A DNA stretch of 64,000 bases from assembly GCA_029261455.1 (NCBI GenBank), contig JAJDBH010000017.1, positions 5,563-69,562 of the forward strand, given 5' to 3'. Position 1 is the stretch's first letter. Each line of letters starts with the position of its first letter. A program made the position numbers and the translations under genes. Below are positions 359 to 16,755 of this stretch, piece after piece. A model generated the notes under the pieces. It saw only the letters and a list, made by a program, of their open reading frames with translations. It ran no database searches and was not told the DNA's origin. Origin of the DNA: Nitrospinaceae bacterium. GTDB lineage: Bacteria; Nitrospinota; Nitrospinia; Nitrospinales; VA-1.

Positions 359-2245
359 ATGTGCGGCATTACTGGCTTCATAAATTTTGATCCTTCCGGT
401 CAACCAGAAAACCCAGGTAAAGTCCTGCGTAATATGCTGGACGCTCTGCGGCATCGAGGCCCTGATGATCGCGGTGAGGAACTTATTGAGGTTGCTAATG
501 GCCCTATTCTTCACATAGGCCATCAGAGATTTTCCATCATCGACCTTTCCGCTGCCGGGCATCAGCCTATGGCCAACGACGACAAGTCGGTTTGGGTTTC
601 AACCAACAGCGAAATCTATAATTACCAGGAACTGAGAAATGAACTGGCTAATAAGTTCCAGTTCCGCTCTCAATCTGACACTGAGGTTTTGTTGAGGGCC
701 TACGAACACTGGGGCGTTGGTTGTCTCGACAAGCTTATCGGGATGTTTTCTTTCGCCATCTGGGACCATGAACGTGAAGCGTTATTTGTGGCCCGCGATC
801 GATTAGGAATCAAGCCGCTCTACTATCATATAAAAGGCCAGCAGTTTGCCTTTGCCTCAGAATTGCGTTCCCTGCTTGCATCCGGATTCATAGACAAATC
901 GATAAACCCGACCGGACTATATCATTATCTTTCCTTTGGTCACTCTAAAGCTCCAGAGACCATCATCAATTCAGTACGCGAATTGAAACCAGGCCATTAT
1001 TTATGGATTGATAAAAACGGCAACTGGGAAGAAAAGGAATATTGGAATCCATTTAGCCAAAATGATTTCGCAGTCAGTGGTGTGGATATTCAGGAACAAG
1101 TTAGAAGTGTGATAACAGAATCCGTTCGATGTCGTAGTGTCAGCGATGTTCCTCTGGGGGCATTCTTGAGCGGTGGAATTGATTCGAGTGTCGTGGTGGG
1201 AAGTCTAGCCAGTATTTCTGATGACCCTGTCACCACTTTGACCATCGGTTTTCAGGAAAAAGAATTCGATGAGTCGGAGTACTCGCAGGAGGTTTCTGAC
1301 AGATTTAAGACGAATCATCATGTCTTACGGTTGGATGAAGAACAGCTTTTACAGGCTCTGCCCTCTTCCCTATCGGCTATGGATCAACCCACTATTGATG
1401 GTATCAACACTTACCTGATATCTCGTTCAGCCCATGAAGTTGGGTTGAAAGTAGCGTTAAGCGGATTGGGAGGCGATGAACTGTTTGGAGGTTACCCCTC
1501 TTTTCAATTGATCCCCAAGCTCATGCAAAGGAAAAAGTTATTTAAATACATTCCATTTATGAAGTGGGGCGTTGGTTTGTGCAAAGGATTGTTCCCTTCC
1601 GATCAGGCCACAAAGCTGGAACACTGGGTGCAGGGGAAATTAAGCGGAGCCCATGAATATTTTCTTATTCGCGCCCTATTCTGCCAAGATCCTCTCACCC
1701 ATTTATTTGCTGATAAAACACTGGCACGAACTGAAATCGAAAAAGACTATCAGCGTTCTCTGAATCAGATCGAACAATTGCCCTCAGATGATGTGTTCAA
1801 TCAGATCTCTTATCTCGAAACATTTCATTACCTGCAAAATATGCTTTTGCGCGATGTGGATATGATGAGTATGGCGCATCCGCTTGAGGTTAGAGTCCCT
1901 TTTATGGACCACCGACTGGTGGAAATGATGTTTCAATTATCAGGAAGTGAAAAATCCGGTACGGCCAAGCATCTATTAGTGGAATCCATGAAGTCCTTAT
2001 TACCGGATAATGTGTGGCAACGAAAAAAGATGGGATTCGCCTTTCCTTTTGATATGTGGATGCGTGGAGCCTTACGCCCGGAAATTGAAGCCGTGCTATT
2101 ATCTCCCCTGCAAAAGCTTGAGGGGATTGTGTCACAACAGGCTGTGGCAAATATCTGGAACGATTTTCTTTCTGGGCGAGTCTCTTGGTCGAGGCCTTGG
2201 TCACTTTATGTTCTAAAGTCCTGGATCAATAAAAACCTTTCTTGA
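359..2245 (+). CDS. asnB: asparagine synthase (glutamine-hydrolysing)
   Basis: 628-aa ORF beginning MCGI (Cys2 nucleophile of class II glutamine amidotransferases). Has the PP-loop motif AFLSGGIDSSVV typical of the synthetase domain. Confidence 0.9.
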   Translation: MCGITGFINFDPSGQPENPGKVLRNMLDALRHRGPDDRGEELIEVANGPILHIGHQRFSIIDLSAAGHQPMANDDKSVWVSTNSEIYNYQELRNELANKFQFRSQSDTEVLLRAYEHWGVGCLDKLIGMFSFAIWDHEREALFVARDRLGIKPLYYHIKGQQFAFASELRSLLASGFIDKSINPTGLYHYLSFGHSKAPETIINSVRELKPGHYLWIDKNGNWEEKEYWNPFSQNDFAVSGVDIQEQVRSVITESVRCRSVSDVPLGAFLSGGIDSSVVVGSLASISDDPVTTLTIGFQEKEFDESEYSQEVSDRFKTNHHVLRLDEEQLLQALPSSLSAMDQPTIDGINTYLISRSAHEVGLKVALSGLGGDELFGGYPSFQLIPKLMQRKKLFKYIPFMKWGVGLCKGLFPSDQATKLEHWVQGKLSGAHEYFLIRALFCQDPLTHLFADKTLARTEIEKDYQRSLNQIEQLPSDDVFNQISYLETFHYLQNMLLRDVDMMSMAHPLEVRVPFMDHRLVEMMFQLSGSEKSGTAKHLLVESMKSLLPDNVWQRKKMGFAFPFDMWMRGALRPEIEAVLLSPLQKLEGIVSQQAVANIWNDFLSGRVSWSRPWSLYVLKSWINKNLS

Positions 2246-2258
2246 AGTAGCTATTTTT

Positions 2259-3134
2259 ATGGAAATCCCGTTTTATCAGGTTGATGTTTTTACCGATCAT
2301 ATTTTTGGTGGTAATCCCCTGGCTGTTTTCACCCATGGGCAAAATTTCAAGAAAGAGGACTTACAGAGGGTCGCTCGAGAGATGAATTTATCTGAGACCA
2401 CCTTCGTTTACCCCTCCTCCACGAATGAAGCGGACTACGATGTGCGCATCTTCACCCCTACCAGCGAGATTCCTTTTGCCGGTCACCCTACCCTTGGCAC
2501 CGCATACGTTCTCAGGAAATATGGCTCGGCGACGGAAAATACTCTGCGTTTAAATTTCAAAGCTGGGATAATTCCTGTATCGATCGAAGGAGACAAAATT
2601 TTCATGCAACACCCCCCCGCACAGACCCTGCATGAACTGAACCAGTCAGAATTAATTGCCGAGGCTTTGGGGATACCGCTAAGCGGTTTGGATGAGAGTC
2701 TTCCCATCAGGGTAGTTTCTACAGGCTTCCCCGCATTATTTATCCCAGTAAATTCATTAAGCATTATCAATGAGATAGCGATTAATGCCCAGACTTTAGA
2801 TGAAGTTTTGCGGCCTCTGGAAATTGATATGATATATCCCTTTTGTCGCGAAACCCTCAATCCCGCTAATACCGTCCATTCACGCGCTTTTGCTCCAAGT
2901 CTGGGAATTCCTGAAGATCCTGCAACAGGCAGCGTAGCGGGGGCTATGGGTGCCTATTGGGCCAGTCTGAGTGATGAGAAGGAGATAAGCATGGTCATCG
3001 AACAGGGTTATGATATGCAACGCCCTTCATTGATCTATGTTGAAGTATCAAGTCGGGAAATTCAAAAAATACGTGTGGGTGGGCAGTGCCAACCGGTATT
3101 TACCGGCCTTATGAATCTTGAAGCAAGGTCATAA
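2259..3134 (+). CDS. PhzF-family isomerase-like protein
   Basis: 291-aa ORF. The N-terminus FYQVDVFTDHIFGGNPLAVF and overall length are typical of the PhzF/YddE family. Starts 14 nt after asnB. Confidence 0.85.
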   Translation: MEIPFYQVDVFTDHIFGGNPLAVFTHGQNFKKEDLQRVAREMNLSETTFVYPSSTNEADYDVRIFTPTSEIPFAGHPTLGTAYVLRKYGSATENTLRLNFKAGIIPVSIEGDKIFMQHPPAQTLHELNQSELIAEALGIPLSGLDESLPIRVVSTGFPALFIPVNSLSIINEIAINAQTLDEVLRPLEIDMIYPFCRETLNPANTVHSRAFAPSLGIPEDPATGSVAGAMGAYWASLSDEKEISMVIEQGYDMQRPSLIYVEVSSREIQKIRVGGQCQPVFTGLMNLEARS

Positions 3135-4922: not shown

Positions 4923-6084
4923 ATCAAAACCCGCTAATTACTTTCGAAAGCTTGCATGGGGTTGTTTTATTCTGGCCTTTGTCTTTATCAATGCCTCGTT
5001 TTTTCTGGACAGCTATAGTCCGTCAAATCCGCAAAAAGTTATTCCCAGCAGTCTGGAGAATAGTCAGGATTATAAAAACCTACTGGACTTGCAAAATGCG
5101 TTTATTCGTAATGCAAAAAAAATTAAGCCTTCCGTAGTCAGTGTGAACAAGGTCAAAGAACTGGTGGAGAAGTCGTCCTGGTATGAACCACATGGAACTA
5201 AACCATGGTATGCATCAATTAGGAACTGGTTCGCTGAAAACCTTAAAACCCGAAAATATAGCGTCGAGAATGTTGGGTCAGGCATTATATTGGATTCCAA
5301 CGGTTATATTTTGACTAACTATCATGTCGTTGAAAAACTCGATAGGATTTTAATCAAATTATCTGATGGAAAAGAGTATTTCGCAAAAGTCCTGGGCTAT
5401 GACACATACACCGACCTTGCTGCCCTGAAAATTTCGACACTAAGACGACTCCCTGAGCCGGAGTTTGGCGAGTCCAAAGCTTTGAGCGTTGGCGAATGGG
5501 TAATGGCTATAGGAAACCCATACGGGCTTGAAGGTACTGTCACTGTGGGAGTGATCAGCGGAATTGGGCGCACAGACGTCGGAATCAACCATTTTGAAAA
5601 TTTTATCCAGACCGATGCCTCGATCAATCCGGGCAACAGTGGCGGTCCCTTAATCAATCTGGACGGCCAAATTGTGGGGATCAATACAGCCGTGGCGGCT
5701 ATTGGCGCTGGAGTGAGTTTTGCTATTCCAGTAGAGATGGCTTTGGATATAGGAGTTCAACTGATCGAAAATGGTTCAGTAGAAAGAGGCTGGTTAGGAA
5801 TTGGAATTCAGAATTTGACACCGGAACTGGCAAACACATTCAACTTGAATACCTCAGGGGTTGGAGTGCTGGTCAACAGTATCGCAAGTCAAACACCCGC
5901 CCAATCAGGAGGAATGCTTCGGGGAGATATTATCATTCAGTTCGATGGTCAAACTATTTCCAATTTAAAATACTTTCAAAAATTAGTTGCAGATACGGCA
6001 ATTGGGAGAGAGGTTCCTGTTAAAATATTCCGCGATGGTCATGAAAAAACACTCAAGATTAAGATAGGGAAAATGAGCTCCTAA
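4915..6084 (+). CDS. htrA: HtrA/DegP-family periplasmic serine protease with one PDZ domain
   Basis: 389 aa with an N-terminal TM/signal. Catalytic triad contexts TNYHVV, TDLAALK and GNSGGPL. The C-terminal region looks like a PDZ domain. Overlaps the ubiE stop by 8 nt. Confidence 0.9.
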   Translation: MPESKPANYFRKLAWGCFILAFVFINASFFLDSYSPSNPQKVIPSSLENSQDYKNLLDLQNAFIRNAKKIKPSVVSVNKVKELVEKSSWYEPHGTKPWYASIRNWFAENLKTRKYSVENVGSGIILDSNGYILTNYHVVEKLDRILIKLSDGKEYFAKVLGYDTYTDLAALKISTLRRLPEPEFGESKALSVGEWVMAIGNPYGLEGTVTVGVISGIGRTDVGINHFENFIQTDASINPGNSGGPLINLDGQIVGINTAVAAIGAGVSFAIPVEMALDIGVQLIENGSVERGWLGIGIQNLTPELANTFNLNTSGVGVLVNSIASQTPAQSGGMLRGDIIIQFDGQTISNLKYFQKLVADTAIGREVPVKIFRDGHEKTLKIKIGKMSS

Positions 6085-6293
6085 TTTCCCATCACTTCAA
6101 ACCCCGCCTCTACAATCTGAGCAGATATTTCATCCACTTGAGTTTGTGACTCGTCAAAATCTACCGTCACTTCTTTTTGTTCGAGGCTGACCTCCACTTT
6201 TTCAACCCCTACTATTTTACCCACCGTTTCACTCACCGTTTGGACACAGTGCTGGCAAGTCATTCCTTCTACTTTTAAAACTTTTTGCATCAT
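6081..6293 (-). CDS. copZ: heavy-metal-associated (CopZ-like) metallochaperone
   Basis: 70 aa with an MTCQHC metal-binding motif near the N-terminus and HMA-domain length. Confidence 0.85.
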   Translation of the reverse strand: MMQKVLKVEGMTCQHCVQTVSETVGKIVGVEKVEVSLEQKEVTVDFDESQTQVDEISAQIVEAGFEVMGN

Positions 6294-7801: not shown

Positions 7802-8344
7802 TCACGCTGTCTTCAGTGAAGATAGGTTTGGGAACATCACGCTTGATTTAAGCTTATTCTCCCAGGCCTTTCCTAACCTGTTTGATCTCAAGTCGAGAGA
7901 CTCCAGCTTTACCATTTTTCCTGATCCTGCCAAAATCCCCATCCCCTTGCGTGTAATTTGATTGTTTCTTAAATCCAGTTTGCGGATATTGCCCAACTTA
8001 TCCGATGACAACAGCGCGTCTAACCCCTCATCACCCAGTTGATTTTTTCTTAAGTCAAGATCTTCGACATTTTCCAAACCTGGGTACTGGCTCAAAAAAG
8101 CGGCTTCAAACCATGTCAAGTCCAGATTGACCAACCGTAACACTTTTGGGTTGAGCATCAAACGAGCTCGCACAAATTTCTCAAATAATGTGAGACTTCG
8201 GGTACGAGTTCCAAACAAATTTGCATCAATGGCGGCATTGATATCATCAATGTTTCCTTTAGTACTATAAAAAATATTCAGGAGATTCTCTTTATTTAAC
8301 TCGTCCTGATTCAACTCATCCTGGTTCAATTCCTCTGAACTCAT
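7802..8344 (-). CDS. leucine-rich repeat protein (ribonuclease-inhibitor-type LRR)
   Basis: 180 aa. Has about 28-aa repeats LDLRKNQLGDEGLDAL.../LDLRNNQITRKGMGIL.../LDLRSNRLG. The N-terminus carries a duplicated NQDEL peptide. Confidence 0.7.
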   Translation of the reverse strand: MSSEELNQDELNQDELNKENLLNIFYSTKGNIDDINAAIDANLFGTRTRSLTLFEKFVRARLMLNPKVLRLVNLDLTWFEAAFLSQYPGLENVEDLDLRKNQLGDEGLDALLSSDKLGNIRKLDLRNNQITRKGMGILAGSGKMVKLESLDLRSNRLGKAWENKLKSSVMFPNLSSLKTA

Positions 8345-8543
8345 ATTTATTCCTACTTTCTTGAAATTTAGATGGCAGCTAAAAGAGCTATAATAACTGA
8401 TTTTTCATATATATTTGTTATACTTTAAAAGAAAGCTCGCCCATTTGAGCAACTTAAGGTTTCTATCTTTCAAAACCAATATTTTCCGGTGGCAAATATA
8501 ATGAATTATTTCAATTTTACAACTCAAATAATTTCCTGACCCC

Positions 8544-9293
8544 GTGAATACCGCTAAATTCCTATTCTCAAAAATATTTTCGGCTTTCATGGATGTGTTT
8601 CCTATTATAGTCGTTATCGCTTTTTTTCAGCTCGCCATTATTCAAAAACCGTTTCCACAGTTGGGGCAAACTCTTTTTGGAGTCGTACTGGTCGTCATAG
8701 GACTTTTCATTTTCATATTAGGTTTGGAGAGCGCTCTCTTTCCTATTGGCGAAAAAATGGCTAATGAATTTGCTTTAAAAGGTAACCCTTGGTGGATTAT
8801 TTTTTTCGGCTTTGCCTTAGGGTTTTCCACCACCATAGCCGAACCGGCTTTGACCGTTATAGCTAGTAAAGCTGGAAACCTTGCCGCCGGCGCAGGTGCT
8901 ATCGCAGACAATAAAGATGCAGTGGCCAGTTTTGTTCTTGGGCTCCGTTTTACTGTCGCCTTTTCAGTTGGGTTGGCCATCGCCATAGGTGTAGTTCGAA
9001 TATTAAAAGGATGGCCCTTAATCTGGTTCATCATGGGTGGCTATGGTCTCATCGTCATCACCACATTTTTTGCGCCAAAAGAGATTATTGGTATTGCCTA
9101 TGACTCTGGCGGAATAACAACTTCTACCATCACCGTCCCATTAGTCACCGCCTTGGGTGTCGGGCTTGCTACTTCCATAAGAGGTAGAAACCCTATGCTC
9201 GATGGATTTGGGCTGATTGCCCTGGCAAGCCTTAGTCCCATTGTATTTGTTTTAGGGTATGGGATTTTTATTTATGGCGTGGGGGGTGTATGA
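8544..9293 (+). CDS. DUF1538-type polytopic membrane protein, paralog 1
   Basis: 249 aa and hydrophobic. Shares GFSTT(I/L)AEPAL and AYDSGG(I/V)TTST(I/V)TVPL..ALG.GLA...DGFGLIA motifs with the next ORF. GTG start. Confidence 0.7.
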   Translation: MNTAKFLFSKIFSAFMDVFPIIVVIAFFQLAIIQKPFPQLGQTLFGVVLVVIGLFIFILGLESALFPIGEKMANEFALKGNPWWIIFFGFALGFSTTIAEPALTVIASKAGNLAAGAGAIADNKDAVASFVLGLRFTVAFSVGLAIAIGVVRILKGWPLIWFIMGGYGLIVITTFFAPKEIIGIAYDSGGITTSTITVPLVTALGVGLATSIRGRNPMLDGFGLIALASLSPIVFVLGYGIFIYGVGGV

Positions 9294-10099
9294 ATACCGG
9301 AATGTTTGAATTGTTGGGAAACGCACTGAGCGGAACATTGCTGGATATTCTTCCAATAATTCTTGTATTGGGTTTCTTTCAGATGGCTGCAATTCGCAAA
9401 GCCATTCCACACTTGAAACAAAAATTAGTGGGGTTGATTCTGGTTGTTCTAGGGCTGGGAATTTTTATTGTGGGATTGGAACAATGTGTGTTCCCAATTG
9501 GCACACAAATGGCTCATCAGTTGACCGATCTTCTCTTTCTTGCTGGCAACGATTCTGTCAGAGCAGAATTCCTGCAAAACTCCAAGAATATAGCACCCGG
9601 AGTTTACTTGTGGACTTATGTCTTTGCTTTTTTGATTGGCTTTTCTACTACTCTTGCAGAACCAGCATTGATAGCTGTAGCGTACAAGGCCCGCGACATC
9701 ACAACTGGTGCGATTTCTGCTTGGGGTTTGCGAATTTCTGTCGCTCTCGGTGTCGCTGGGGGCGTGACACTGGGAGTTTATCGTATAGTGACAGGGAGTC
9801 CGTTACATTACTATATTGTTACAGGGTACGCCCTTTTACTAATCCAAACCTGGTTTGCCCCAAAACAGATTATTCCACTCGCATATGATTCGGGTGGTGT
9901 CACCACTTCAACCGTAACCGTACCATTGATCGCAGCATTAGGGATAGGATTAGCCTCAAATGTTCCTGGGCGTTCCCCCTTAATAGACGGCTTTGGGCTG
10001 ATCGCTTTCGCCTCCCTTTTCCCTATGTTCACTGTGATGGCATATGCTATGATCACCGAAAAACGGACGAAGCGTAAAGAGATTGATGAACTATCTTGA
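9290..10099 (+). CDS. DUF1538-type polytopic membrane protein, paralog 2
   Basis: 269 aa. Clear paralog of the preceding ORF with the same motif set. 4-nt ATGA start/stop overlap. Confidence 0.7.
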   Translation: MNTGMFELLGNALSGTLLDILPIILVLGFFQMAAIRKAIPHLKQKLVGLILVVLGLGIFIVGLEQCVFPIGTQMAHQLTDLLFLAGNDSVRAEFLQNSKNIAPGVYLWTYVFAFLIGFSTTLAEPALIAVAYKARDITTGAISAWGLRISVALGVAGGVTLGVYRIVTGSPLHYYIVTGYALLLIQTWFAPKQIIPLAYDSGGVTTSTVTVPLIAALGIGLASNVPGRSPLIDGFGLIAFASLFPMFTVMAYAMITEKRTKRKEIDELS

Positions 10100-10113
10100 G
10101 GAGTTAAAAGCTC

Positions 10114-10461
10114 ATGCGTTTTAAAGTTATATTAGCAATGGTAAATGAGAAGTATCAGGACGGAGTTATCGAGTCCGCAAAAACCGCTGGTGCTACCGGC
10201 GTCACTATTCTTAATGCTCGTGGTGAAGGCATTCACGCACAGAAGTCATTTTTGGGACTCACCATGGAATCTCAAAAGGATATGCTCCTTTTCCTGGTTG
10301 AAGATTTTATTTCCAATAATATTATGGAGGCAATTTATAAATCCGGGCATTTGAGTGAGCACGGAAATGGTATTGTATTCTGTCTGGATGTAGATAGGGC
10401 TATAGGCTTGGAAAGCCAGATGCCTACCATGGAAAAAGACGCAAAAGATCGTTATTTTTAA
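10114..10461 (+). CDS. PII (GlnB-like) family signal-transduction protein
   Basis: 115 aa. Ferredoxin-like beta-alpha-beta pattern with a T-loop-like segment (LNARGEGIHAQKSFLGL) and a GNGIVF strand. Starts 14 nt after paralog 2. Confidence 0.75.
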   Translation: MRFKVILAMVNEKYQDGVIESAKTAGATGVTILNARGEGIHAQKSFLGLTMESQKDMLLFLVEDFISNNIMEAIYKSGHLSEHGNGIVFCLDVDRAIGLESQMPTMEKDAKDRYF

Positions 10462-10479
10462 CTAGCCGAGGAGAGAAGA

Positions 10480-10869
10480 ATGGTCAACATTCAAAAAGTC
10501 CGTGACGTCATGATGTCTAATTTCACCAAAGTGGATGGAGTCATGAAAGTTTCTGATGCCTTGAATATGATGCGGGAAAAAAAAATTAATGCGCTTCTAG
10601 TCGAACCAAGGGATGAGAATGATGTTTATGGCATAATGACACTGAAAGATATCGCAAGAAAAGTTATTGGGCAAAACAGAAAACTTCACGAATCTCATGT
10701 CTATGAGATCATGTCGAAACCAGTTTTGTCGATCAATTCAGACATGCCTATACCCTATGCAGCAAGGTTTCTAAGCAATTTTGATGTTTCTTACGCAATG
10801 GTTATTGAAACTAATGTTGTAACGGGAATGGTCTCACTCAATGGAATGGTGAGTGGTTGGGAAGACTGA
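10480..10869 (+). CDS. CBS-pair domain protein
   Basis: 129 aa with two CBS motifs (VRDVMMSNFTKV... and VYEIMSKPVLSI...). GAGGAG RBS upstream. Confidence 0.85.
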   Translation: MVNIQKVRDVMMSNFTKVDGVMKVSDALNMMREKKINALLVEPRDENDVYGIMTLKDIARKVIGQNRKLHESHVYEIMSKPVLSINSDMPIPYAARFLSNFDVSYAMVIETNVVTGMVSLNGMVSGWED

Positions 10870-10877
10870 TTCTTCCA

Positions 10878-11426
10878 TCAACCTTTCTTAAGGGAGGTTC
10901 CAGCACGGCTGTCCCATATAACGGTGTCAGGACTTGACACATGCCCTGCTTCAGCACTCCAATGGTCAAACCCTGCCTGCACATTTAAAATCTTAACGCA
11001 CTCGTTCATGCCCCCTGCCCCACCAATGTGAGAATAAATTCTTCGCAGATCACCTATATAGTTCCCCTGCTCTGATTTATACCTGTCCTGCGCTTCGGCA
11101 ATATTGGCCAGGGTGGCTTCGGCCATGGCATTATGATTGAAAATTTCTTTTTTCATGCTGTTATAATCTACTAAAAAGTTCACATATACCCAGCCAGCAA
11201 ATGGAACTATTGCCATTATCAAAAATACTTTTTTCCAAAACTTGTGATCAAAAAGAATACCCGGAATCATAAGAGCTAAAGCCAGCCATAATGCATATTG
11301 GGAAATCTGCTCAAAAATCCCCAAGGGCGGAATCTTCTCTCCGCAGGATGTTTGGGCAAAAACCACACCCGGCACTGAAAGCAGGATGAATACCCATAAA
11401 AATATTTGATTAGTTTTATTACTCAT
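10878..11426 (-). CDS. hypothetical membrane protein
   Basis: 182 aa with a signal/TM plus two further TM segments. The soluble C-terminal domain includes ANIAEAQDRYKSEQGNYIGDL, loosely reminiscent of pilin-like alpha1-C helices. No family assigned. Confidence 0.5.
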   Translation of the reverse strand: MSNKTNQIFLWVFILLSVPGVVFAQTSCGEKIPPLGIFEQISQYALWLALALMIPGILFDHKFWKKVFLIMAIVPFAGWVYVNFLVDYNSMKKEIFNHNAMAEATLANIAEAQDRYKSEQGNYIGDLRRIYSHIGGAGGMNECVKILNVQAGFDHWSAEAGHVSSPDTVIWDSRAGTSLKKG

Positions 11427-11637: not shown

Positions 11638-12063
11638 ATGAATGACACCAGCAGGTTTGAAGATAAAGGGGATGGAACACTGTTAGACCATGATTCCGGT
11701 TTAGTGTGGTCCAAAGAGGACTCCTGGCCAGTGGCTCAGGACTGGTTAACCTTCCAGGAAGCACTTTTATTCGTCGATGAAATGAACAAGAAGGATTACC
11801 TTGGATACCACGATTGGCGTATTCCCGAGAGAGAAGAAATCGAAAAAATTTATATTCCAGATAGCACTATTATGGGTCGGTCAAATAGTGAAGTTCACCT
11901 CGACCCACTATTCGCAGCGGGTGGAGGAAATGCCTCATGGTGTTTACCCTTTGACCAGCAGGCGGCATTCTATTTTTCCTACTCTTCCGGCAACGCACAA
12001 CAATTCGATCAGGATTATTCTCAGGGCTATGTTCGTTTGGTTCGGCTTTATCCTGATGATTAA
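11638..12063 (+). CDS. DUF1566 (Lcl C-terminal domain)-like protein
   Basis: 141 aa. DKGDGTLLDHDSGLVWSK...W..A......N....LGYHDWRIP..EE matches the DUF1566 pattern. Confidence 0.65.
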   Translation: MNDTSRFEDKGDGTLLDHDSGLVWSKEDSWPVAQDWLTFQEALLFVDEMNKKDYLGYHDWRIPEREEIEKIYIPDSTIMGRSNSEVHLDPLFAAGGGNASWCLPFDQQAAFYFSYSSGNAQQFDQDYSQGYVRLVRLYPDD

Positions 12064-12473
12064 GAAGCCACTCGTTTTCTGCAAGGCACAAGTTTAGGCA
12101 TTTCCTTTGGAGATGCCACCATCTGCCGGATTTCTACCTGATCGGATTCGTAAGCGATAGTGGCAATTTGATACCTGTCTGTATCCACTTCACGTTGACT
12201 GCCTTGATACTGGTCTAGAGCGGCCCCCAAAGCATCCCATTCTAAATAAAGTAAGAATTGCTCTTCCGAACTGGTCAAACCTAGATCAACAACCAAGTCA
12301 CTGAACTCCAACTGGATCACTTCTCCAACATGCTTACCTTGGCAAAACTCCACAAAACCTATTCCTCCACCCACAGACTTTTGGCAGGTTAGCTTTGCAA
12401 AATCAAAACTAACTAGACAGTCCTTTTCGTCGAGGATGACTGTTATTTGTGCTGTTGTATCTTTGCAGGGCAT
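12060..12473 (-). CDS. hypothetical protein
   Basis: 137-aa ORF with no recognised motif. Convergent with, and overlapping by 4 nt, the DUF1566-like gene. Confidence 0.45.
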   Translation of the reverse strand: MPCKDTTAQITVILDEKDCLVSFDFAKLTCQKSVGGGIGFVEFCQGKHVGEVIQLEFSDLVVDLGLTSSEEQFLLYLEWDALGAALDQYQGSQREVDTDRYQIATIAYESDQVEIRQMVASPKEMPKLVPCRKRVAS

Positions 12474-12624: not shown

Positions 12625-13473
12625 TTAGCTGGAAATAATGTTCATACTGATATCAACCGCTGGGGCCGAATGAGTCAATGCTCCTACCGAAACAAAATCT
12701 GCACCGGTTTTGGATATCTCATCTAAACATTCCAGAGTAACACCTCCGCTGATTTCAACTTTGGCCCTACCATCGATTAATATAACTGCATCACGAATCA
12801 TCTTTATACTCATATTGTCCAGCATGATGATATCAACCCGGTTCTCCAATGCTTCCCGAACTTCATCCAGGTTTTGGGTTTCGACTTCAATTTTATTTTT
12901 ATTGCCCATGGCTTCACGTATTTTTTCAACAGCTCGAAAAATACTCCCGGCAGATTTTATATGATTGTCTTTAATCATCACTGCATCATACAATCCGAAT
13001 CTATGATTCGTGCCGCCGCCACTGTACACAGCATATTTTTCAAAAATCCTCAGGCCGGGAGTAGTCTTACGTGTATCCAAAACAATCACAGGATGAGCCT
13101 TATCAACATATTTTCGTGTAAGCGTTGCGATACCACTTAGCCACTGCAATATATTCAGTCCCGATCGTTCTCCCTCCAGAATTTTAACTCCATCGCACCG
13201 AAACTTAATGATCGTGGAACCCTTTTCAATAGAGTCACCATCGTGAAAAGGTTCAGAGAGAAAAACAGTTTCAGGGTCCAGCTTCAGAAATAGAGTCTTA
13301 AATATTTCCAACCCAGATAGTATCAAAGAATCTTTAGCGATCAGTTCCGCTTCACAGATTTGACCATTAGATATAATGTTACGGGTCGTGATATCACCAC
13401 TCTGAATATCTTCATCCAGACAAGTGTTAATGAGCGACTCTATATCAGCAGTCATGAGTGTGTTTTTTAGCAT
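12625..13473 (-). CDS. nadC: nicotinate-nucleotide pyrophosphorylase (carboxylating)
   Basis: 282 aa. The TRKT.PG.R..EKYAV..GGG.NHRFGLYD..MIKDNH pattern is typical of quinolinate phosphoribosyltransferase. Confidence 0.9.
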   Translation of the reverse strand: MLKNTLMTADIESLINTCLDEDIQSGDITTRNIISNGQICEAELIAKDSLILSGLEIFKTLFLKLDPETVFLSEPFHDGDSIEKGSTIIKFRCDGVKILEGERSGLNILQWLSGIATLTRKYVDKAHPVIVLDTRKTTPGLRIFEKYAVYSGGGTNHRFGLYDAVMIKDNHIKSAGSIFRAVEKIREAMGNKNKIEVETQNLDEVREALENRVDIIMLDNMSIKMIRDAVILIDGRAKVEISGGVTLECLDEISKTGADFVSVGALTHSAPAVDISMNIISS

Positions 13474-14826: not shown

Positions 14827-16755
14827 TTATTTCTCTTTCATCACAACTATCCCAAGCCAGTTTTCAGGAGGGGTAGCAATATATTCCCGGCACCGTTCTG
14901 ACATGTTTTTACTTGGAATATCTTTGCTGGTATTATACAAGGTAGCAAACGCTTCTTCTGACGGAACGAAGTCTCCCTTTCGATATAAAGCCAATGCAGA
15001 CTCATAGTCTGATTTTATTCTAATCTGTTCTGGGGATGCTTTTTTACTTTCTGCCATTACTTCATATATTTGAGCTCCCTGGGTCCTGCCTTTTACTTGA
15101 ATCGTATCCAGTTCTCTTAATAGGAGGTCATGCTCTACATTTTTCTTGGTGAACACATCAATGATGATATCGGTCCCATACATTTTGTTTATTCCTTCCA
15201 ACCTGGAACTATAATTAACAGTGTCACCAATACAAGTGTATTCAAGGTTTTTTTCTGAGCCAATATTGCCGACAATCATATGACCCGTTGCTACTCCCAC
15301 TCGCATTCTAATTTCAGGAAGTCCTTTGGCCAACCATTGCGGACGTAATATTTTAAGCTGCGCTTGCATATTCAGAGCAGCTTGACATGCCAATAAAGAA
15401 TGATTCCCCGGAGTGAATGGAGGCCCCCAGAAAGCCATGATAGCATCTCCAATATATTTATCTAAAATGCCATGGGTTTGTGATATTTCTTCCGTCATCG
15501 CACCTAAATATTCATTTAATAATTGAATCAAAGACTCTGGAGCCATGGTCTCACTGAAACTGGTGAAGTTGGCCACATCACAGAACAAAACTGATTGATA
15601 GCTTCTTGTACCTCCAGGCAGGATATTGTCGGGATTTGAAAGTATGTTTTCAACGATCGAAGGATGAACATATTTTCCGAAGGTATCCTGAATATATTTC
15701 TTTTCTCTCAAACCTTTGAGCATGTGATTAAAGGCCTTCGACAGCTCCCCCACCTCGTCGCTTGAGGTGTGCTTTATTTCAAAGTCGTAATTATCATCAA
15801 TCACACCCTTTGTACCCTCTAACAAGGATCTTAATGGCCGGGCTATTCTCTTTGAGAAAACTATCGAAAACATTAACCCCACCAACAATACAGCTATCCC
15901 CATCAGTAAAATTTTATTTTGAATTTCCTTAAAGGGTATTAGAGAGTAATCAAGGTTAGTTGCGTATAAATATCCGGCGCCATTATCATAAGAACCCCTC
16001 TGGGTTATATAACGTTCGCCTGCGATCTTTAACATTCCAGCGCCACTTGGAACTTGCGTCAACTTCTCAATAACGGTTTTACTAAATTTTTCGGATACAT
16101 TATCTGCTACGATTTTGGAATCACTGAAAAACACAATTTGCAAGGCATTCTGTGCCAAATTAGTGCCGATTAAATCTTCCACCCATTGATCATCTATATG
16201 TTTAACAACTATCATCACTCCCAAAGCATATTCATCTGTTAGAGATTCCTTCAGGGGTAAAGCAACCGAGCTCATCAATTTGCCATCACCAGAAATCATA
16301 CTCCGTCTATCTTCTCCCGTTTCCAACACATCCTTAATGGGAAACTTAGAAATATTATCTGTCACCCATTTAGTAATATTCTCATCTGTAGGGTAAATGC
16401 CACGAATGTGAAAGGAGTCATCGATCATGAAGACCCAATCTGCTTCGGTATCACGGGCGATCTCTTCAGAGAATGAGTAGAAATTGTCCTTGATCTGAGA
16501 AAGAAAGGACCGGAATTTCTGATCCAAAGTCAGTGTCTTGGCAAGCTTTAAGGTATGAACTTGTTCACGGTTCAACTGTTGGTTGAACCTGAGGTGGGTT
16601 TCTTTGAGTTTCGAAGATAGACTCTTGATCTCAAATTGTTCGGTCTGACTATTTGTTATGTAAAGAGTCAAACCCAACAGAAGAGTGAAAAATATAAAAA
16701 ATGAAAGAAATATTTTTACACTAAGTTTCATTTTTGCTTTGCAAAATTTTATCAA
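14827..16755 (-). CDS. membrane-bound class III adenylate/guanylate cyclase with periplasmic sensor and HAMP
   Basis: 642 aa. Order is TM1, a periplasmic domain of about 250 aa (Cache-like by position), TM2, a HAMP-like linker, then the cyclase domain (VLFCDVANFTSFSE, GDAIMAFWG, RVGVATGHMIVGNIG). The start may be the internal MKLSVKIF. Confidence 0.85.
   Translation of the reverse strand: MIKFCKAKMKLSVKIFLSFFIFFTLLLGLTLYITNSQTEQFEIKSLSSKLKETHLRFNQQLNREQVHTLKLAKTLTLDQKFRSFLSQIKDNFYSFSEEIARDTEADWVFMIDDSFHIRGIYPTDENITKWVTDNISKFPIKDVLETGEDRRSMISGDGKLMSSVALPLKESLTDEYALGVMIVVKHIDDQWVEDLIGTNLAQNALQIVFFSDSKIVADNVSEKFSKTVIEKLTQVPSGAGMLKIAGERYITQRGSYDNGAGYLYATNLDYSLIPFKEIQNKILLMGIAVLLVGLMFSIVFSKRIARPLRSLLEGTKGVIDDNYDFEIKHTSSDEVGELSKAFNHMLKGLREKKYIQDTFGKYVHPSIVENILSNPDNILPGGTRSYQSVLFCDVANFTSFSETMAPESLIQLLNEYLGAMTEEISQTHGILDKYIGDAIMAFWGPPFTPGNHSLLACQAALNMQAQLKILRPQWLAKGLPEIRMRVGVATGHMIVGNIGSEKNLEYTCIGDTVNYSSRLEGINKMYGTDIIIDVFTKKNVEHDLLLRELDTIQVKGRTQGAQIYEVMAESKKASPEQIRIKSDYESALALYRKGDFVPSEEAFATLYNTSKDIPSKNMSERCREYIATPPENWLGIVVMKEK

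Follow-up and report, generated by a model that had tools for sequence, protein, structure and literature searches.

A four-gene operon in a Nitrospinaceae contig

The window analysed here, a stretch of 64,000 nucleotides from a Nitrospinaceae bacterium (Nitrospinota; assembly GCA_029261455.1, contig JAJDBH010000017.1, positions 5,563 to 69,562), carries a compact operon in which two membrane proteins of the DUF1538 family are followed by a PII-like protein and a protein with two CBS domains. We propose, at somewhat better than an even chance, that it encodes a heterodimeric monovalent-cation/proton antiporter of the UmpAB type together with two cytoplasmic regulatory subunits, namely the PII-like and CBS proteins. 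The antiporter type is already known, and what appears to be new is its partnership with PII-like and CBS proteins. The features of the operon, in window coordinates, are as follows.

8367..8394, plus strand: promoter-like site TTTAGA-16-TATAAT (consensus scan, 10/12 matches; weak evidence)
8544..9293, plus strand: gene 1, UmpA-like DUF1538 membrane subunit, 249 amino acids, alternative start ATG at 8589 (Pfam, NCBIfam, AlphaFold)
9290..10099, plus strand: gene 2, UmpB-like DUF1538 membrane subunit, 269 amino acids (Pfam, NCBIfam)
10114..10461, plus strand: gene 3, DUF1538-dedicated PII-like protein, 115 amino acids (Pfam P-II, AlphaFold, lineage profile)
10480..10869, plus strand: gene 4, stand-alone CBS-pair protein, 129 amino acids (Pfam, two CBS domains)

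A preliminary description of this DNA had noted four tightly spaced, co-directional genes, and the open reading frame (ORF) coordinates confirm its spacings exactly: an ATGA overlap of 4 nucleotides between genes 1 and 2, then gaps of 14 and 18 nucleotides. Because both ends are flanked by genes on the opposite strand, the unit comprises exactly these four genes. Homologs with named sources also assign the window to Nitrospinota. The promoter-like site falls inside the 199 intergenic nucleotides ahead of the operon. Gene 2 is preceded by a GGGGG site, genes 3 and 4 by GAGGAG. The start of gene 1 is ambiguous between the GTG at 8544 and Met16 (8589), with a clear ribosome-binding site at neither, and many database orthologs are called from the internal Met (234 amino acids). 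The 15 N-terminal residues in question are matched across phyla by tblastn, which makes the GTG start plausible.

The membrane proteins resemble the UmpAB antiporter

Both membrane proteins match DUF1538 (Pfam PF07556) over the full length of the profile, with E-values of 9.6e-67 and 1.4e-64 (224.8 and 217.7 bits; cutoff 22.6 bits). They are paralogs, 45% identical in a pairwise alignment (E 4e-72), as had been read earlier from two motifs common to both, GFSTT(I/L)AEPAL and AYDSGG(I/V)TTST(I/V)TVPL. The best NCBIfam match of gene 1 is UmpA (309.7 bits vs 196.9 for UmpB) and that of gene 2 is UmpB (291.1 bits vs 214.5 for UmpA), and A and B profiles built here separate the pair in the same way, gene 1 scoring 380 with A vs 248 with B, and gene 2 scoring 247 vs 393.

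UmpA and UmpB were described in 2017 from Halomonas zhaodongensis as the products of two overlapping DUF1538 genes, both required for the rescue of E. coli KNabc (PMC5484666). The two proteins were co-immunoprecipitated as a heterodimer, and everted vesicles carrying them performed pH-dependent Na+, Li+ and K+/H+ antiport (PMC5484666). The view taken in the preliminary description, that the substrate and mechanism of DUF1538 proteins are not established, is thus superseded; that description had named a defined substrate and regulation for the family as what would speak against its reading, and UmpAB supplies the former but not the latter. The same study distinguished UmpA by a long loop III-IV, and UmpB by a long loop II-III and a hydrophilic C-terminus (PMC5484666). 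Pairwise alignment places the corresponding traits in the window proteins: gene 1 has the longer loop III-IV, after the GFSTTIAEP motif, and gene 2 has an extra loop II-III before the first motif and a hydrophilic, basic C-terminal tail, EKRTKRKEIDELS.

The window pair therefore shares with UmpAB its subunit-specific loops and basic B tail and its best family matches, along with adjacent, overlapping paralog genes in the order A then B and a similar A-to-B identity (~45% here, 43% in UmpAB). It differs in its source, Nitrospinota as opposed to a halophilic gammaproteobacterium, and in scores that stay under the narrow equivalog cutoffs weighed below; moreover, UmpAB was published as two genes alone, and PII-like and CBS genes are not mentioned in PMC5484666. 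The well-supported UmpA and UmpB clades of that study include homologs from Scalindua, Desulfobacula and Methyloglobulus (PMC5484666), and the loci from these three genera that we analysed all contain the full set of four genes. The cloned Halomonas fragment, for which no ORF is listed after umpB, was still active in E. coli (PMC5484666), so the regulators appear to be unneeded for basal activity. A role in the homeostasis of cations and pH has independent, correlative backing: UmpAB homologs are reported in marine and brackish cable bacteria, and DUF1538 is among the key pH-adaptation gene features in a 2026 machine-learning study.

The AlphaFold model of the UmpA-like subunit is all-helical (predicted local distance difference test score, pLDDT, 79.9), with helix breaks exactly at both conserved motifs, in agreement with the earlier suggestion that these form re-entrant or substrate-site loops. 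The polar residues that do not vary in 159 sequences of A and B include E100, D187, T192-T197, R135, R152, R215 and D220. Each subunit may be pictured as contributing two helix-break-helix elements with Glu100, Asp187 and the Thr/Ser cluster, probably the ion and proton sites. Neither sequence searches nor Foldseek found a solved relative of the subunit (best Foldseek E 0.27), which makes the complex an attractive structural target, and no other Pfam family proved related to the DUF1538 subunits by sequence. An internal duplication of the subunit was considered and rejected, the profile-profile comparison of its N- and C-terminal halves not being significant (E 0.24). The natural fusions described below lead us to infer that A ends, and B both starts and ends, on the cytoplasmic side, and hence that the subunits are parallel with an even number of membrane crossings, which differs from the seven segments predicted in PMC5484666.

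Gene order in close relatives

A scan of a genome collection returned more than 596 DUF1538 matches, from which we analysed the 80 closest loci (55-82% identical to subunit A); these are the best-scoring subset and not a random sample. Gene order was counted in the 74 loci with enough downstream sequence, which represent at least six phyla. The order A-B-PII-CBS on one strand is present in 67 of the 74, and a PII gene in 73. Five loci end after PII, with unrelated genes following in the four that were read (L014, L020, L022 and L033); one further locus is frameshifted with all four parts, and one has A only. Loci with the conserved order come from Nitrospinota, Gamma-, Beta- and Alphaproteobacteria, Desulfobacterota, Bacteroidota and Planctomycetota. 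Neighbouring genes overlap or lie within 30 nucleotides of each other in 73 of 79 A-B pairs, 68 of 76 B-PII pairs and 53 of 68 PII-CBS pairs, and the PII and CBS genes are usually translationally coupled, 38 of their pairs having an ATGA overlap. This recurrence of the four-gene arrangement is far beyond chance.

The flanks of the 80 loci hold no third conserved partner gene; only the gammaproteobacterial synteny genes nadC, ampD and ampE recur. Nitrogen- or carbon-assimilation genes are not recurrent in these flanks, and neither the window nor 12 loci searched yielded a riboswitch or other substrate-indicating RNA. In locus L090 the gene immediately before the operon has Pfam Na_H_Exchanger and TrkA_N domains (847-2406, plus strand), and the adjacent genes in L020 (8109-10097, minus strand) and L022 (4063-5157, plus strand) look Kef-like by eye from their sequences. 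Such CPA2/Kef adjacency is sporadic, none of these neighbours forming a flank cluster common to four or more of the 80 loci.

PII partners across the DUF1538 family

Nine distant loci, a small sample, were picked by their DUF1538 protein alone at ~30% identity, and in 8 of them a PII-like gene is adjacent or a PII domain is fused. Two alphaproteobacterial plasmids carry DUF1538-DUF1538-PII, and three clostridial replicons encode a fused double DUF1538 protein of ~500 amino acids followed by a double-length PII; a CBS gene is found in none of these five loci. One metagenomic protein is DUF1538-DUF1538-PII in a single chain, whose linker sequences exclude a frameshift artefact. At locus L092, a long-loop DUF1538 fusion is followed by a 360-amino-acid protein (5093-6175) that has no Pfam hit and scores 47.7 bits with our profile of the PII-like lineage; its middle PII-like segment is clear and the two flanking ones are weak, at a spacing of ~120-130 residues, so that it is possibly a three-domain pseudo-trimer in one chain. 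Divergent PII partners, this protein among them, are missed by Pfam. The gene directly upstream in L092 encodes a multi-domain biotin carboxylase of 1,831 amino acids. Two PII-like genes, a degenerate copy and a consensus-like one, come after another fused DUF1538 form.

The single distant exception, represented by 7 contigs, has no PII gene and instead a fused domain resembling nucleoside-monophosphate kinases. At L093 (3001-5175, protein P0338) this is a cytidylate-kinase-like C-terminal domain with a P-loop, GSGVST, lacking the lysine, apparently another way of equipping the same transporter with a nucleotide sensor. The idea that DUF1538 proteins of 600-736 amino acids are generally PII fusions was rejected, since of 47 such proteins just one has a P-II domain and one a kinase-like domain. 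Within fused proteins, the two halves show only a weak tendency to fall into the A and B types.

NifI1/NifI2 form a heteromeric or multi-domain PII system, and other DUF1538 clades resemble such systems in using PII domains in tandem, a pair of PII genes or a larger PII-like protein of several domains. The window differs from them, having a single PII-like gene plus a CBS gene and no link to nitrogenase. In the tandem and two-gene versions of distant DUF1538 systems, one copy only keeps the traits of the lineage described below, which suggests that one functional T-loop per A-B unit may suffice.

The search was also run in reverse, from the PII side. The lineage profile retrieved at least 3,119 clusters, all named ones being labelled nitrogen regulators, and each of five members looked up sits directly after DUF1538 genes. 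A Halomonas entry is absent among the profile matches listed, and a plasmid search gave distant DUF1538 members only. The DUF1538 family is itself sizeable, counting 3,796 representatives at the 50% identity level. PII is therefore a family-wide partner of DUF1538, and CBS an addition specific to the UmpAB-like clade. The preliminary description had tied a heteromeric transporter to the PII-like and CBS proteins and had expected the genes to co-occur in other genomes; the close and distant counts, together with the natural fusion, support both, and the co-occurrence is very strong.

These data also bear on a different division of labour, in which the transporter would act mainly as a membrane anchor or sensor that catches or frees the PII-like/CBS pair as ion or pH conditions change, the pair in turn controlling other cytoplasmic targets. 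It is a quite unlikely scheme in our judgement. There are precedents in the sequestration of GlnK by AmtB and in the additional soluble targets of SbtB, and UmpAB does function without PII-like and CBS proteins. Nevertheless, the PII-like lineage was seen solely beside DUF1538 genes (5/5 reverse look-ups), the occasional covalent fusion of PII to the membrane protein is more in keeping with a dedicated subunit than with a signal that shuttles, and the flanks lack a third conserved partner gene.

A distinct lineage of PII-like proteins

The third gene was expected to encode a 115-residue PII-fold protein, and the fourth a tandem-CBS protein of 129 residues; both assignments hold. The PII-like protein scores 41.9 bits with Pfam P-II (PF00543; cutoff 25), which is its sole Pfam match, with no hit to the PstA/DarA type of c-di-AMP receptor. 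Its AlphaFold model (pLDDT 75.8) adopts the PII fold, in which the T-loop is disordered and a further helix is added at the C-terminus. Foldseek related it with a probability of 1.00 to many PII structures (TM-scores 0.55-0.64), matching canonical PII, CPII and SbtB about equally.

An alignment of 77 orthologs with E. coli GlnB sets the lineage apart from canonical PII proteins. The T-loop is 5 residues shorter than that of GlnB and reads K-T-F-F-G-L-x-L-E-x-Q-x-D; F46, G48 and L49 are invariant, giving an F-x-G-L core that is mostly K-T-F-F-G-L. The canonical ligand residues are replaced, K90 by Ile in 91% and R101 by Gly in 99% of members, while K58 falls in the deleted 5-residue stretch and there is variation at positions 38, 39 and 103. 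The Y51 modification site has no Tyr counterpart, and the glycine framework is retained. The residue set that marks a canonical PII protein, comprising the Mg-ATP/2-oxoglutarate contacts Q39, K58, K90, R101 and R103 and the Tyr51/Ser49 site, is accordingly not present. From Nitrospinota to Clostridia, members have in common the short T-loop, an F-(F/L)-G-(L/I) motif and a P-G-x-G-(I/L) B-loop.

Could the gene nevertheless encode an ordinary GlnB/GlnK nitrogen regulator that lies beside DUF1538 genes incidentally? Database names ('P-II family nitrogen regulator', 'nitrogen regulatory protein P-II') would suggest so, as would its passing the Pfam P-II threshold. However, the GlnB equivalog model scores it at only 20.2 bits where 202 are required, and the lineage profile gives it 147 bits vs 27 for E. 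coli GlnB. K58, K90, R101 and R103 are not conserved, nor is there a Tyr at the Tyr51 position; no amtB or glnA gene is adjacent, and the linkage to DUF1538 is conserved across phyla. The scores, the lost residues and this linkage effectively refute the ordinary nitrogen-PII reading, and what little probability we leave it is close to nil. We conclude that the PII-like protein represents a distinct lineage, found essentially only with DUF1538 proteins and labelled "nitrogen regulator" in databases.

The CBS-pair protein

The fourth protein has two CBS domains (Pfam E 2e-17), and among solved structures it is most closely related to the CBS module of CBS-CP12 (E 5.7e-20). The ribose-binding Asp of CBS1, D57, is invariant in 69 orthologs; in CBS2 an Asp is the consensus and the window protein has Gly, a degenerate second site. 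With two motifs and a ribose-binding Asp, the protein qualifies by sequence as a CBS pair (Bateman module). It thus resembles CBS-CP12 and other stand-alone Bateman sensors of adenosine ligands in its two CBS motifs and its conserved CBS1 Asp. Unlike CBS-CP12, it has neither CP12 nor another effector domain, its second site is degenerate, and proteins of its type are genetically coupled to a PII-like gene, often via an ATGA overlap.

A proposed PII-gated antiporter and its weighing

Homology, conserved gene linkage and natural fusions are observed here, and antiport by UmpAB alone comes from PMC5484666. By analogy with GlnK-AmtB and SbtB-SbtA, the PII-like protein would dock on the cytoplasmic face of the UmpAB-type exchanger via its T-loop and open or close it. 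Docking of this kind has indirect support from the natural DUF1538-DUF1538-PII fusion and from the invariance of the T-loop motif. The CBS pair would join the PII-like protein and add a second, adenosine-ligand input, and proton-driven extrusion of Na+ or K+ would in this manner be tied to the energy state of the cell, as read from adenine nucleotides, or to its second-messenger state. Since UmpAB is active in E. coli without them, the regulators probably modulate or inhibit the exchanger; T-loop docking, the identity of the ligands and inhibition rather than activation are the parts that we infer. Dual control by nucleotides and metabolites, as previously suggested, is plausible, although the canonical PII ligand residues are missing.

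A broader proposal, which we put forward tentatively and would rate a little short of even, is that DUF1538 transporters constitute a third major PII-gated class, as yet undescribed, beside AmtB and SbtA. This class would have a dedicated, co-evolved PII-like lineage, one T-loop plugging each A-B unit, and, in the UmpAB clade, CBS as second adenosine-ligand input. A PII gene conserved beside the transporter, as expected of a PII-gated system, is what the counts give (73/74 close, 8/9 distant and 5/5 reverse). As in GlnK-AmtB and SbtB-SbtA, the gene for the PII-fold protein comes right after those of the transporter, the pairing is conserved across taxa, and the T-loop is conserved and flexible. 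The differences concern both partners. The channel or carrier in the known systems is homotrimeric, whereas the DUF1538 partner is heterodimeric and has no detectable similarity in sequence or fold to other transporter families; here, moreover, the ATP/2-oxoglutarate contacts are replaced, the T-loop is shortened, a CBS protein is added, and docking is proposed by analogy.

Several points weigh against a UmpAB-type antiporter governed by these two subunits. The basic residues that contact ATP phosphates and 2-oxoglutarate are missing, so that nucleotide binding is not assured, and the threefold symmetry of a PII trimer has no obvious fit to a pseudo-twofold heterodimer. The window pair (309.7 and 291.1 bits) does not reach the equivalog cutoffs of NF041627 and NF041628 (490 and 500 bits). 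Gammaproteobacterial orthologs likewise stay under them at 344-401 bits, no scanned locus having reached a cutoff, which indicates that the NCBIfam UmpA/UmpB models are narrow; on sequence grounds we file the window pair as UmpAB-type orthologs and not as proven equivalogs. In addition, the antiporter assignment relies on one laboratory's heterologous assays, and the family also has members in gut Clostridia and Thermotogota, organisms under no obvious salt stress.

The last two points equally favour an alternative in which the operon encodes a PII-gated transporter of another physiological substrate, such as ammonium, bicarbonate or some other inorganic ion or solute, the antiport seen in KNabc being a side activity. 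The well-understood PII-gated transporters, GlnK-AmtB and SbtB-SbtA, carry nitrogen or carbon species, and a fold that has no match among solved transporters gives no clue to the substrate. Against this, the correlations with habitat and pH are independent pointers to cation/proton homeostasis, CPA2/Kef-type antiporter genes occasionally adjoin the operon, and cation sites typically have acidic and Thr/Ser residues such as those invariant here; the flanks are also devoid of recurrent nitrogen- or carbon-assimilation genes and of a riboswitch for another substrate. We therefore regard a different substrate as unlikely, and retain the cation/proton antiporter with PII-like and CBS regulators as our reading.

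PII proteins rank among the most widely distributed signalling proteins, and the few transporter targets that are understood are those for ammonium and bicarbonate. The pH and sodium level of the cytoplasm are set by cation/proton antiporters, about whose fast post-translational control in bacteria little is known. We found no literature on a PII or CBS link with DUF1538 or UmpAB in a search whose coverage lay outside most subscription journals. Should PII-like and CBS proteins indeed gate UmpAB-type exchangers, the PII superfamily would gain a new target class, thousands of 'nitrogen regulator' annotations (the clusters counted above) would be corrected, and the coupling of a proton-consuming exchanger to energy state would be explained. 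It would also follow that the sole functional study of the family was performed without the native partners.

Genes around the operon

Upstream of the operon and divergent from it is a gene for a small leucine-rich-repeat protein (7802-8344, minus strand), whose homologs take the equivalent place in four related loci, one of them L002 from Nitrospinaceae. Downstream, all on the minus strand, are an ORF of 182 amino acids (10878-11426) that ends 8 nucleotides past the last stop of the operon, an ORF of 137 amino acids (12060-12473), both without a Pfam match, and then nadC for quinolinate phosphoribosyltransferase (12625-13473), ~1.75 kb from the operon. Some 4 kb from the operon, a minus-strand gene (14827-16755) encodes a membrane protein with HAMP and class III adenylate/guanylate cyclase domains, and a class I adenylate cyclase gene lies near the operon in the Methylomonas locus L090. 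Cyclase genes are not recurrent in other flanks; they would be relevant if the PII-like protein senses cyclic AMP. The commonest flanking gene of the operon is nadC (18 of 80 related loci, in two phyla), which in other loci is mostly upstream and divergent, ampD and ampE often lying downstream; this recurring neighbourhood is probably synteny. The flank of the Desulfobacula locus L044 (10149-12011, minus strand) contains group II intron RNA domains.

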